Counted from the stretch's first letter, positions 1,061-4,382 are shown. The stretch: DNA of 35,738 bases from Methanothermococcus sp. SCGC AD-155-E23 (GCA_019561615.1 JAHEQA010000045.1:1-35738), one strand, 5' to 3'. A program made the numbers and translations. The notes: generated by a model not told the origin, from the sequence alone.

Positions 1061-1276
1061 TTAAATGGAAGTAGAAAGGGTAGAATCTATCTTACTAAGA
1101 ATAATCCTTATGTCTGTTTTCCTTGTAATATTCCTCTCCTTTTTTAGCAACTCCTTTAACTTCCTTTTTAAATCCTCTAAATCTTCACACCTATCTAGGA
1201 GTTCCTTAAAAAACTCTATATCCTCAATATAGGGACCTATGTTTATCAACAACTCTTCTTTTGTTTTTTCATCCAT
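1061..1276 (-). CDS. Small hypothetical protein (~71 aa, charged, helical)
   Basis: MDEKTKEELL... has the K/E-rich composition of real genes here and fills the gap between the Hmd paralog and dadD. ATG1276 avoids overlap with dadD. Confidence 0.7.
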   Translation of the reverse strand: MDEKTKEELLINIGPYIEDIEFFKELLDRCEDLEDLKRKLKELLKKERNITRKTDIRIILSKIDSTLSTSI

Positions 1277-1301
1277 GTTATCCCAATTATATGGTGATAA
1301 G

Positions 1302-2588
1302 ATGGACATACTTGTTAAAGATCTGGACTATGCCTTAGATCCTGATCTAAGGATCTATAGGGGTATTGATATACTAATCAGGAGAGAGGATGGAGGGGTG
1401 AAACTATATAGGGGGAGAAACCTTCTGGAGAAATTTAACTTAGACAGGAGGGATTTAAAGGTAATAGATGGGGATAAGAAATGTGCAATACCTGGGTTAA
1501 GTAATAACCACACCCATATCCCTATGACCCTCCTAAGGGGGATAGCAGATGACATGATACTACAGAACTGGTTGAGGGAGAAGATATGGCCTAACGAGGA
1601 AAAACTAACAGGGGAAGATGTATATTACGGGGCGCTACTTGGATGTTTGGAGATGTTAAGGTTTGGTGTAACATCCTTCAACGACATGTATTTCTTCCCA
1701 GAGGAGATAGTCAGGGCGACTAAGGAGGTTGGTATAAAGGGGGCTATAGGTTATCCTGTAATAGACTTTGGTACCCCTCAATATAAGGACTTGGACAAAC
1801 TTCTAATTAACTGTGAAAAATTTATAAGAAGGTATATTGGGGAGGAGAGGATTAAGCCAGTTGTAGCTCCCCATGCCCCCTACACCTGCTCCAAGGATAC
1901 CTACCTCTACTGTAAAGAGGTATCTCAGGAGTACAACGTCCCCATGCACACCCATCTCTCTGAGACCAGGTATGAAGTTGTGGAGATGGAGAATAGGATG
2001 GGGATGAGACCTGTAGAGTATCTGGAGAGTATAGGGGTACTGGGGGAGAACCTTATAGCTGCCCACTGTGTATGGGTTACAAAAGAGGAGGTAAAGAAAC
2101 TTGCCAGATATGGGGTTAAGGTGGTCCACTGTCCAGGGAGCAATATGAAACTTGCCAGTGGAGGGGTTATGCCCCTTGTAGAGATGTTAAGGGAGGGTGT
2201 GCCCCTCTCCCTTGGGACAGATGGACCTGCAAGTAACAACAACCTGGATATACTGGAGGAGATGAAGATATGTTCACTACTTCACAAGGCCCATAGATGG
2301 GATCCTAGAGTTGGTGATGTGGACACTGTTTTAGGTATGGCCTTCAACAGTGAAGTCATAGGTTTCGAAAATAAGGATATAGTACTACTAGATCTTAAAA
2401 GTCCCCATCTAAGACCTGTCCACAGTATAAAGTCTAACATTGTGTACTCTGCAAATGGGAACGACGTAGATACTGTTATTGTGGATGGGGAGGTGTTACT
2501 GGAGAACAGGAAATTTACCAGGATAGATGAGAGGGATTTAAGGACCCTCTACAGTAAGATAGATAGAATAGTGGAGAAATTTGAGTGA
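1302..2588 (+). CDS. dadD: Amidohydrolase, 5'-deoxyadenosine/MTA/SAH deaminase family
   Basis: HTH metal motif (NNHTHIPMTLLRG), PHAPYTCS, HLSET, AAHCVW, SNMKLASG and LGTDGPASNNNLD. GGTGAT RBS precedes ATG1302. Confidence 0.85.
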   Translation: MDILVKDLDYALDPDLRIYRGIDILIRREDGGVKLYRGRNLLEKFNLDRRDLKVIDGDKKCAIPGLSNNHTHIPMTLLRGIADDMILQNWLREKIWPNEEKLTGEDVYYGALLGCLEMLRFGVTSFNDMYFFPEEIVRATKEVGIKGAIGYPVIDFGTPQYKDLDKLLINCEKFIRRYIGEERIKPVVAPHAPYTCSKDTYLYCKEVSQEYNVPMHTHLSETRYEVVEMENRMGMRPVEYLESIGVLGENLIAAHCVWVTKEEVKKLARYGVKVVHCPGSNMKLASGGVMPLVEMLREGVPLSLGTDGPASNNNLDILEEMKICSLLHKAHRWDPRVGDVDTVLGMAFNSEVIGFENKDIVLLDLKSPHLRPVHSIKSNIVYSANGNDVDTVIVDGEVLLENRKFTRIDERDLRTLYSKIDRIVEKFE

Positions 2589-2643
2589 AGCTCTATGTTC
2601 TTTAGAGAGGTGTTTTCTTTTTTGGTGTAACCATATTCCCTAC

Positions 2644-3543
2644 AGTGAAACCCTCACACCGTTAACCTTAGTAGTGATGGAAGTGGCACTACACCTCCCA
2701 TCCCATTTTCTTATAATGAAAAGTTGGACCCCCGGTGCGAAATCCGCACCCCCTCAAAGATTTTCCCCGGGCTTTTTCTCACCCACCTTCCCAAAATCCC
2801 AATTTCATATATATACCTGCGTCCCAGGGTATATATACCCCGTGACGCATTTCGCACCAGGGGGAAAGTATTCACTATAAGAAAAGAGGATGGAGGGTGC
2901 GAAATCCGCACTTGTGCAAGGTTTTGCCCCAGGATTATGAGGGTTAGGGGTACGCATTCCGCACCTTTTCGAAAATCTCCCCGGGACTCCTGTTCTCGGA
3001 ACTGCCGCATTTCGCACCACCTCTCTTTTTTCCTTATAATATAAATCCCATTTCTTATAGTGAAACCTCCTCTTGTACCGTTAACCTTGGTAGTGATGGA
3101 AGTGGCACTACACCTCCCATCCCATTTTCTTATAATGAAAAATTGAACCCCCGGTGCGAAATCCGCACCCCCTCAAAGATTTTCCCTGGACTTTTTCTCA
3201 TCCACCTTCCCAAAATCCCAATTTCATATATATACCTGCGTCCCAGGGTATATATACCCCAGGACGCATTCCGCACCCCCTACCCCATTTTCTTATAGTG
3301 AATACCTGAACCCCCGGTGCGAAATGCGTCACAAAATCCCTCTTAAGGTGCGGATTTCGTCCACTTCTGAAGGTCAACCTCGAGATTTTCCCGGGACTCT
3401 TCCTTGACAACTGCCGCATTTCGCACCCCCCTCCAAGACCCCACAATTTTTTCTTATAATATAAACCTCATTTCTTATAGTGAAACCTTGGACCCTGGTA
3501 GCCTCAAGGGGCGGTAGAGGTCACTATACCCTTCCTATCACAT
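2644..3543. repeat. Non-coding tandem repeat locus: two ~415-420 bp units plus a degenerate partial third
   Basis: AGTGAAACC recurs at 2644, 3059 and 3479. Block 2658-2841 matches 3077-3260 at offset 419 with 6 mismatches in 184 bp. Tails 2975-3068 and 3385-3488 are also similar. Confidence 0.95.
2734..3427. repeat. Array of ten 17-bp quasi-palindromic sites, consensus GGTGCGnAWTnCGCACC
   Basis: Copies start at 2734, 2842, 2896, 2949, 3002, 3153, 3261, 3316, 3347 and 3411. Confidence 0.9.
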
Positions 3544-3683
3544 GCCAACACTTAACTTAACCCCTAGGAATGGTGATGGGTTAAATTAAAATAATAAAAA
3601 TCCAATTTTTTGTAATAACCACCTTTTTATAACCTTATAAAAAAGTTAAAAAATATTAATAGGGATTAAACGGTGAAAATTAG

Positions 3684-4382
3684 ATGAAAGTAGATATGCA
3701 TGTTCATACCCTGAAGTCAAGCTGCTCCCTGAACCCCATAAGACTGTTGAAAAAGCTATGCTCAAAGATGGGTATACTCCCCTTTATATGTGATCACAAC
3801 ACCCTTACAAAGACAGATTTTGGAATACCTGGAGAGGAGATATCCACAGACAAAGGTGAATTTATAGGGCTATTTTTAAACGAGGCTGTAAATGACAGGG
3901 ATATCTTCGAGGCCATGGATAAGGTGAAGGAGCAGGGAGGATTGATATACCTACCTCACCCCTTTGACGAGAACAGGGGTAGGTCCCTCTGCCGATACAA
4001 CATACTTAACGACAAGGAGTTTAAAAAGAGGGTAGATATTGTAGAGGTTTTCAACAGTAGGTGTAGGGACAACAGACCTAACGAAATGGCTTATCAATAC
4101 GCCAAGATGAACAACATGTTAATGGGTGTAGGGAGTGACTCCCACTTTCCCTGGGAGTTGGGTAATGCATATCTAATACTCGAGGAGGAATTTGACAGGG
4201 ACAACCCCAAGGAATTTCTAAGGGTACTGAAAAAGAACAACAAAAATGGTTTTAAATACTACGGGAAGTTAGGGAGCCCAATTAACATGATATGTAGTAA
4301 AATCTCAAAGAAGATAAACAAATCAGGCTCCCTGAGACTCCCCAAGTTGAAGTTTAACAAAGACCTGATAAGATACCTGTGA
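3684..4382 (+). CDS. PHP-domain metal-dependent phosphoesterase (TrpH-like)
   Basis: DMHVHT, CDHN, GEEI, PHPF, EVFNSR and GSDSH motifs; GGTGA RBS. Confidence 0.88.

Follow-up and report, generated by a model that had tools for sequence, protein, structure and literature searches.

Bacterial repetitive extragenic palindromes (REPs), bacterial interspersed mosaic elements (BIMEs) and REP doublets forming hairpins (REPINs) are short palindromic units of intergenic DNA, often located after stop codons, that occur in mosaic arrays and as hairpin doublets. The defining enzyme of REP and REPIN elements is a Y1 transposase, the REP-associated tyrosine transposase (RAYT). In shufflons (R64, Rci/sfx) and invertible promoter switches (fimS, hin), a short segment lies between inverted repeats and is found in both orientations, and miniature inverted-repeat transposable elements (MITEs) are small, non-coding, multi-copy elements with terminal inverted repeats, a target-site duplication and a related autonomous insertion sequence. 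Here, we compare these systems with a non-coding mosaic repeat of Methanothermococcus sp. SCGC AD-155-E23, two tandem copies of which lie in a contig of 35,738 nt (GCA_019561615.1 JAHEQA010000045.1:1-35738; hereafter the window, which is contig C45 of assembly G000, 1.04 Mb in 51 contigs and 86% complete). A short core bounded by two 17-bp boxes, which we call P boxes, is flipped in one copy relative to the other, and a first-pass annotation of the window had taken this arrangement for a shufflon-like switch operated by a recombinase encoded elsewhere. Our analysis points to a different reading, namely that the flip is probably an old inversion, now fixed within one subtype of an interspersed mosaic repeat specific to this lineage, and not a phase-variable switch.

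The family behaves like REP, BIME and REPIN elements. It comprises 50 P boxes, which lie in both orientations at 9 loci, are joined by conserved linkers and form mosaic arrays; its copies lie just after stop codons, and its inverted doublets are predicted to fold as one hairpin (z = -4.9 for the common form, type A). It differs from those elements in its archaeal host, its unrelated box sequence, the AT-rich TATA-like boxes in its loops and its restriction to 9 loci, and no RAYT/Y1 transposase was found in G000, in the sister species G011 or in the congeners G009, G005 and G002. With shufflons, fimS and hin, the locus shares a short segment bounded by inverted repeats and found in both orientations, but no cognate recombinase was found, the orientation is fixed for each copy and subtype, there is no coding segment, the nearly symmetric module offers no one-way promoter and the flipped copy is 26% diverged. 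Membership of the shufflon/invertase class was thus rejected, as the flanking inverted repeats are there but neither a recombinase of the tyrosine or serine family, searched in the 86%-complete G000, nor, from the sequence, an orientation-dependent output was found. The repeat also resembles MITEs, being small, non-coding and multi-copy and varying between close relatives in whether a given locus contains it; nevertheless, this class was rejected too, given that the repeat ends in direct T boxes (TATA-like boxes described below), that the aligned flanks show no target-site duplication and that G000 contains no match to Y1, TnpB or DDE_Tnp_1. In the titles and abstracts of the literature, we found nothing relevant on repeats of this kind in Methanococcales or Methanocaldococcus. 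What the comparisons below demonstrate is the inversion, the dispersed family, the fixation of orientation within each subtype, the insertion of the repeat relative to congeners and the lack of matches to the recombinase and transposase families searched.

The flipped module

The two tandem units form a direct repeat (2658-2858 and 3077-3277) with 96% identity at a spacing of 419 bp. Both contain P boxes, which are 17-bp near-palindromes of the form nnCGn-WWW-nCGnn that fits all ten boxes of the window, and T boxes, which are TATA-box-like near-palindromes of the form TTTTC-TTATART-GAAAA. With up to two mismatches, the P box GGTGCGAAATSCG has nine matches in the 35.7-kb window, all within 2734-3427 (0.31 expected; nine was reached by none of 100 shuffles), and the T box TTCTTATARTGAA has six exact matches, all within 2708-3484. 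Two mutually inverted P boxes, one on each side at 10-11 bp, enclose the T box that we call T2, which results in a 72-bp near-palindromic module with the following parts.

2842-2858, minus strand: P box, left inverted repeat of the flipped module (unit 1)
2859-2895, minus strand: inverted 37-bp core, consisting of the T2 box (2868-2884) and two 10-bp linkers
2896-2912, plus strand: P box, right inverted repeat of the flipped module and right end of the 162 bp missing in the copy on contig C13
3261-3332, plus strand: unflipped module of unit 2, consisting of P box 3261-3277, core 3278-3315 (T2 forward) and P box 3316-3332

Direct identity of the two units extends across the left 17-bp box and stops at its inner edge (2858 and 3277); the breakpoint is therefore at the box, as had been proposed, but not at 2842 and 3261, where it had been placed. 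Two inverted matches cover the module, one of 41 nt between 2868-2908 and 3265-3305 (83%) and one of 22 nt between 2842-2863 and 3311-3332 (95%). Global alignment of 2842-2912 to 3261-3332 gives 58/72 identities in inverted orientation against 43/74 in direct orientation, and for the 37-38-bp core without the boxes the corresponding values are 28/38 and 14/39, with 28 reached by none of 2000 shuffles (maximum 20). Moreover, the 17-nt T2 boxes of the two units are exact reverse complements of each other, as are the P box at 2842-2858 and the box at 3316-3332 (17/17). The claim that the core between two 17-bp boxes is flipped between unit 1 and unit 2 is thus upheld, and the breakpoints of the inversion coincide with the edges of P boxes, those at 2842-2858 and 2896-2912 being mutually inverted. 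The flipped and the unflipped core differ at 10 of 38 positions (26%), and the flanks differ at around 4%.

A related module that had been noticed in forward orientation at around 2681-2750 and 3100-3169 was recovered as direct repeats at 2692-2746, 3111-3165 and 3274-3328. The next site along (2946-2967 versus 3345) had also been described as flipped, and an inverted match of 16 nt at 88% does exist there; however, we consider this flip unproven, because the boxes are near-palindromic, so that their orientation hangs on few bases, and because the surrounding segments are not homologous between the units. As single-stranded DNA, the type A module is predicted to form a 14-bp P-box stem with T2 in a loop of around 44 nt (z = -4.9), and none of 200 shuffles folded equally well; for the type B module, the z value is -1.9 and 13 of 200 shuffles did so.

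A dispersed family with two subtypes

A motif scan and blastn searches identify the two units as copies of a non-coding mosaic repeat of around 365 bp that occupies 9 loci in G000. In the alignment of all copies, the repeat begins at the T box TTTTCTTATAATGAAAA (T1) and ends at the T box TTTCTTATAGTGAAACC (T3). In a scan of G000, an exact 13-mer of the P box was counted 28 times, spread over 9 contigs (41 times when up to one mismatch is allowed); in a scan that included 40 relatives, the count was 38 in G000 and zero in the relatives. A blastn search places single copies of type A at C17:15762-16135, C36:88685-89047, C4:82288-82651 and C47:6826-7189 and detects partial copies where contigs C9, C13 and C23 end; the pair of a type B and a type A unit recurs at C29:16028-15209, collinear with window positions 2706-3527 (95.1% identity over 823 bp). 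At the C13 and C36 loci, the repeat reaches around 85 bp further left than elsewhere, with near-identical left flanks (C13:205-330 and C36:88560-88685) that contain a further P box and a TATA-like box.

Two subtypes can be distinguished. Type A, the common form, is represented in the window by unit 2, while type B, which comprises unit 1, unit B of C29 and the partial C13 copy, is marked by the flipped T2 core and by a right half that differs from that of type A. T2 is parallel to T1 and T3 in six of the eight complete units of G000, and the two flipped units (unit 1 of C45 and unit B of C29) are both of type B. The C13 copy is shorter by 162 bp, the missing stretch being exactly that between two identical P boxes in direct orientation (at 2734 and 2896): its positions 1-177, which are 99.4% identical to 2896-3072, are joined directly to the T1-P segment. 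Thus, the suggestion that the 17-bp sites act as rearrangement points is borne out both by the inversion between inverted boxes and by this deletion between direct ones. The parts of the two units, apart from those of the module, are as follows.

2612-2653, plus strand: degenerate remnant of the right end of the repeat (T'/T3 block), 62% identical to 3027-3068
2654-2705, with a copy at 3069-3124, plus strand: spacer of around 55 bp between units in arrays, included in the direct repeat and found also in C9 and in metagenome contig L211
2706-3068, plus strand: unit 1, type B, with the flipped core and the B-specific right half, delimited by the alignment of all copies and the collinearity with C29
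2708-2720, plus strand: T1 box, left end of the repeat
2734-2750, plus strand: P box after T1, with further P boxes at 3002-3018, 3153-3169, 3347-3363 and 3411-3427
2818-2849, with a copy at 3237-3268, no strand assigned: 32-bp palindrome around TATATATA (89%; z of the DNA fold -3.5 and -5.6)
2913-3001, plus strand: B-specific right segment, including the P box at 2949-2965, unalignable to positions 3333-3410 of type A
3125-3488, plus strand: unit 2, type A, the common form, 95-97% identical to the C17, C36, C4 and C47 copies and to unit A of C29
3052-3064, 3127-3139, 3290-3302 and 3472-3484, plus strand, and 2871-2883, minus strand: other T boxes

Beyond G000, an 18-nt word of T2 was found at 57 loci in metagenome contigs, and P boxes accompany it at only one of them (L211), which is a copy of type A whose right flank is that of the C4 locus. 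The exact 17-nt P box occurs in 8 viral and at least 116 genome stretches elsewhere; those listed are single matches in unrelated organisms, and we take them to be chance matches. A blastn search of positions 2600-3530 against plasmid and phage collections gave no match.

Relatives and the age of the flip

A looser form of the P box, CGRAATNCGYACC, occurs 21 times on 12 contigs of G011, whose proteins at the flanks of the repeat are mostly 89-98% identical to those of G000, and five of the repeat loci of G011 share their flanks with G000 loci (C13, C17, C23, C29 and C47). In the complete genome G005, one locus contains four exact matches of the same form (six when one mismatch is tolerated), another two sites with one mismatch lie in a second location, and in G004, G006, G010 and G012 it is at background level. 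The array of G005 (L004, G005:C1:1111058-1111374) consists of six P-type boxes together with T boxes in an AT-rich divergent intergenic region of around 900 bp, the flanking genes of which are only 56 bp apart in G000. This single locus may be close to the ancestral state of the repeat family.

At the locus of the window, the distant congeners G002 and G007 have around 105-150 bp and no repeat, which indicates that the repeat is extra DNA gained in the subclade; G011 and G009 have repeat remnants there, at contig ends. The repeat follows the stop codon of the upstream gene and precedes the native upstream region of the downstream gene, a region retained at 3590-3683. A comparable difference separates the sister species, as G011 has an array of more than 1.2 kb (L027, G011:C40:1-1200) where G000 has 79 bp (C32:43620-43699). 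This G011 array contains around 16 P-type boxes, mostly in one orientation and around 54 bp apart, with a higher-order period of around 434 bp. In another contig of G011 (L036, G011:C113), the repeat beside an nrdD-like gene (compare C47:6817-7198 of G000) adjoins orthologs of the genes at 63-65 kb of C45, so that a break of synteny between G000 and G011 coincides with a copy of the repeat; G000 has no repeat at that position of C45 (C45:63200-63360).

Both orientations of the module are present in G011, at different loci. The C40 module matches type B at 52/81 in direct and at 39/81 in inverted alignment, whereas the C61 module is unflipped by comparison with type A (54/95 in direct and 47/97 in inverted alignment), and the segment to its right is B-like (63/99, versus 44/102 for the A-type right segment). 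The B-specific segment of the window, 2913-3001, resembles this segment after the T2 module of C61 at the same 63/99. Because G011 carries both orientations, the flip would appear either to predate the split between the species of G000 and G011 or to have recurred rarely.

Unitigs and enzymes

For population data, we used the Logan unitigs of four runs from four studies, all of hydrothermal-vent samples; unitigs drop minority variants, and those of X1 and X2 possibly come from the window's own source and may therefore not be independent of it. The X1 unitig (2815-3128, no differences) and the X2 unitig (2784-3128, one difference) bridge both junctions in the flipped state, and the X6 unitig (2840-3110, seven differences) bridges the right junction, also flipped, with a different sequence to its left. 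No strand-changing joint was reported among the unitigs of the four runs. One short X3 unitig leads from a forward T box into the P box at 2896 and the type B right part; this unitig represents another copy or another strain, as its linker differs from that expected from a simple flip of the window copy.

The enzyme search was limited to five families, and around 14% of G000 is missing from the assembly. Y1_Tnp (PF01797), Phage_integrase (PF00589), Resolvase (PF00239), OrfB_IS605 (TnpB) and DDE_Tnp_1 all gave zero matches in the 86%-complete G000, and Y1_Tnp and Phage_integrase gave none over the cut-off in G011 (99% complete), G009, G005 and G002. The controls matched as expected, with Phage_integrase found in 14 of 14 control genomes, including M. 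jannaschii. The lack of a Phage_integrase match over the cut-off thus extends from G000 to the three near-complete congeners G011, G009 and G005, and it would be unusual for a clade of archaea to have no detectable Xer-type recombinase.

Weighing the explanations

Could the module nevertheless be an active, phase-variable site, at which a recombinase encoded elsewhere flips the T2 core and thereby alters a promoter-like output? Inverted repeats of 15-17 bp flank the flipped core exactly, both orientations exist in the clade, X3 joins an unflipped junction to the B-type right part, and G000 is incomplete. However, orientation tracks subtype, with six of the eight units forward and both flipped ones of type B, the flipped core is 26% diverged from the forward one, and the unitigs of three runs show the same orientation without a strand-changing joint. 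The recombinase acting in trans finds no backing either, as the tyrosine and serine families are without matches in G000 and no tyrosine recombinase exceeded the cut-off in G011, G009 and G005. Furthermore, the module is near-palindromic, and its inversion therefore leaves the layout of boxes almost unchanged, which argues against an on/off output; no orientation-dependent output was predicted from the sequence, the module having no coding content by Pfam and its P boxes lying 10-11 bp to either side of a symmetric T box. With the repeat dispersed over 9 loci, we consider a working invertible switch very unlikely. It is even harder to credit that the flipped core arose from mis-joined repeat copies in a metagenome-assembled genome. 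Repeat copies do break the assembly, as C9, C13 and C23 end inside them, and the contig of the window begins with a 92-base run of C, but the same arrangement was assembled on both C45 and C29, where the flanks differ and the sequences have diverged by 5%, it appears again in the X1, X2 and X6 unitigs, and a degenerate flipped form exists in the assembly of another species (G011).

A different possibility is that the repeats are small-RNA genes or portable promoters, in which the T boxes would be archaeal TATA boxes and transcripts would start around 22-25 bp away, inside the P boxes and in both directions, so that the flip would only swap a transcribed linker. The organism has a TATA-binding protein (TBP), the T box contains TTATAA or TTATAG, the P boxes start 10-11 bp from the edges of the T box, runs of T follow the first P box, and the T1 end of the C4 copy is 17 bp upstream of a gene start. 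TTATAA also shows a 3.7-fold enrichment in the interval from -70 to -15 of 684 crude gene starts, where AT-rich words are enriched in general; indeed, the k-mer enrichment upstream of these starts is dominated by AT-richness and does not single out the T box. Against this explanation, no Rfam family reaches its gathering score in the window, the only three weak Rfam matches within 2500-3750 (E 0.55-2.1) all lie outside the repeat units, two matching arms are present in only 13 of 50 P boxes, which makes a conserved RNA hairpin unlikely, and the downstream gene retains its own upstream region. We therefore regard promoter or small-RNA cassettes as distinctly improbable, although less so than a switch.

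An old inversion that became fixed in type B is thus the reading that we prefer. In the ancestor of type B, the 37-bp core between the inverted P boxes would have been inverted once or rarely, likely through recombination or replication template switching between these short inverted repeats, and the flipped form would then have been copied or homogenised to several loci, with later divergence. Such a flip would be expected to change little, the module being nearly symmetric, and the deletion in C13 between direct P boxes would be the deletion counterpart of the same process. The repeats themselves are presumably largely selfish or neutral DNA just after stop codons. The first-pass annotation had itself allowed for an old one-off rearrangement with breakpoints unrelated to the sites; the old rearrangement describes the locus better than a switch does, but its breakpoints do coincide with the boxes.

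Several points weigh against this preferred reading. Low-frequency flipping would not be visible in unitigs, from which minority variants are dropped, and two of the supporting unitigs share the possible dependence on the window's source noted above. A recombinase could also sit in the missing part of the 86%-complete assembly, five families having been searched. In addition, the clade contains both orientations beside B-like segments (C61 versus C40 of G011), and the X3 unitig joins a forward T box to the B-type right part, with a loose end before 2896; from these observations, the inversion may have recurred. Finally, a single clean inversion does not describe the relation between types A and B, which are also different in the part to the right of the module.

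The candidate switch does not hold up, and the locus should not be counted among archaeal phase-variation systems. What emerges instead is a family of mosaic repeats, specific to its lineage, in an uncultured methanogen of hydrothermal vents whose genome is small. This family accounts for breaks in the assembly and for at least one synteny break between sister species, and its short inverted and direct boxes serve as rearrangement points in a genome that gave no match to any recombinase or transposase family searched.

P boxes as candidate binding sites

From their sequence, the P boxes are candidate protein-binding sites, possibly for a single regulator of the Lrp or feast/famine regulatory protein (FFRP) type. 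Under this explanation, the arrays would be regulated cassettes or a titration sink, and binding would maintain their symmetry. All 50 boxes in the repeat regions fit the form abcde[AAT/ATT]e'd'c'b'a', in which c is C and d is G, and 50 of the 62 CGnWWWnCG boxes of the genome fall within the 4,998 bp of repeat regions, the other 12 lying in the remaining 1,038,926 bp. One half is TGCGR in 48 of the 50 P boxes, in which the other half is GACGN (23), TGCGN (13), GCCGC (7), TCCGC (3) or TACGC (2). The sole AsnC/Lrp-family gene found in G000 (L043:1492-1914, minus strand, on C46) resembles P. furiosus LrpA (E 5.5e-48), and its protein has a Ptr2-like set of residues at the contact positions; the G011 ortholog is at L225 (G011:C13). 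At one predicted DNA-contact position, the protein has Ser in G000, G005, G009 and G010 and Thr in G011.

In PMC2715240, the archaeal FFRP sites include TACGA[AAT/ATT]TCGTA for TvFL3, TACGC..GCGTA for Ptr1 and GGACGA[AAA/TTT]TCGTCC for Ptr2, and Thr at contact position 36 is linked to T at base b. The P boxes have the same 13-bp 5-3-5 format as the sites of Ptr1, Ptr2, TvFL3 and FL10, with the same AAT/ATT centre and CG at c and d, and the common G011 box contains the TvFL3 optimum TACGA-AAT-TCGTA. They differ from those sites in being nearly confined to repeats and not placed at ordinary promoters. The residue-to-base rule of PMC2715240 fits G000 but not G011, where Thr36 predicts T at base b and the boxes have A, so that the test of co-variation gave a mixed result that does not support the explanation. 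Likewise, G010 has the same protein but no arrays, and the most frequent half-site starts with T and not with the G expected for Ser37. We thus consider the explanation doubtful and keep it as a lead; the concentration of Lrp-format CG boxes in the repeats offers a testable idea of what the single Lrp-type protein binds.

A bolder proposal is that these mosaics of P and T boxes are an archaeal counterpart of REPINs, that is, hairpin-forming doublets of 17-bp boxes that spread and rearrange, here in a lineage with a reduced genome and without a match to any recombinase or transposase family searched. The rearrangements that speak for it are the inversion between inverted boxes, the deletion between direct boxes and the synteny breaks between species. 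We consider this proposal unlikely. If it were true, a DNA enzyme or DNA-binding protein that acts in trans and is dedicated to the box would so far have gone unrecognised; the single Lrp/FFRP-type protein would be one candidate, as nearly all CG-centred boxes of that format lie in the repeats.

Other features of the window

The repeats lie in an intergenic region of 1.1 kb in which an open reading frame (ORF) scan found no credible genes; none of its four ORFs (82-106 aa) matches a Pfam family at E values up to 0.1. No tRNA or transfer-messenger RNA (tmRNA) was found in the window. A replication origin with origin recognition boxes (ORBs) was considered for the repeats and rejected, given the 9 loci, the lack of a Cdc6_C match in G000 (none was found in the M. 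jannaschii control either) and the absence or background level of the motif in most congeners. A CRISPR array or leader was rejected as well, as Tandem Repeats Finder reports only one 21-bp repeat of 1.9 copies within 2400-3900 and the flanks after T3 are unique. The region and its neighbours, whose genes were named by NCBIfam, are as follows.

1239-2588, plus strand: amidohydrolase-type gene, upstream neighbour of the region
2589-3683, no strand assigned: non-coding intergenic region, from the ORF scan
3590-3683, plus strand: upstream region native to the PHP-like gene, with homology to the short intergenic region found in G002, G007, G001, G011 and G009
3684-4382, plus strand: PHP-like metallohydrolase gene, downstream neighbour of the region

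Besides TBP, G000 encodes an Hmd-related protein, and this gene content, together with the missing Cdc6_C match, suggests a hydrogenotrophic methanogen of the Methanococcales type. Positions 1-92 of the window, at the start of the contig, are all C apart from two G, which looks like a sequencing or assembly artefact. This run gives the first ORF a false poly-proline extension, and the Hmd-related gene, which is truncated by the contig end, has its probable start at or near position 114.

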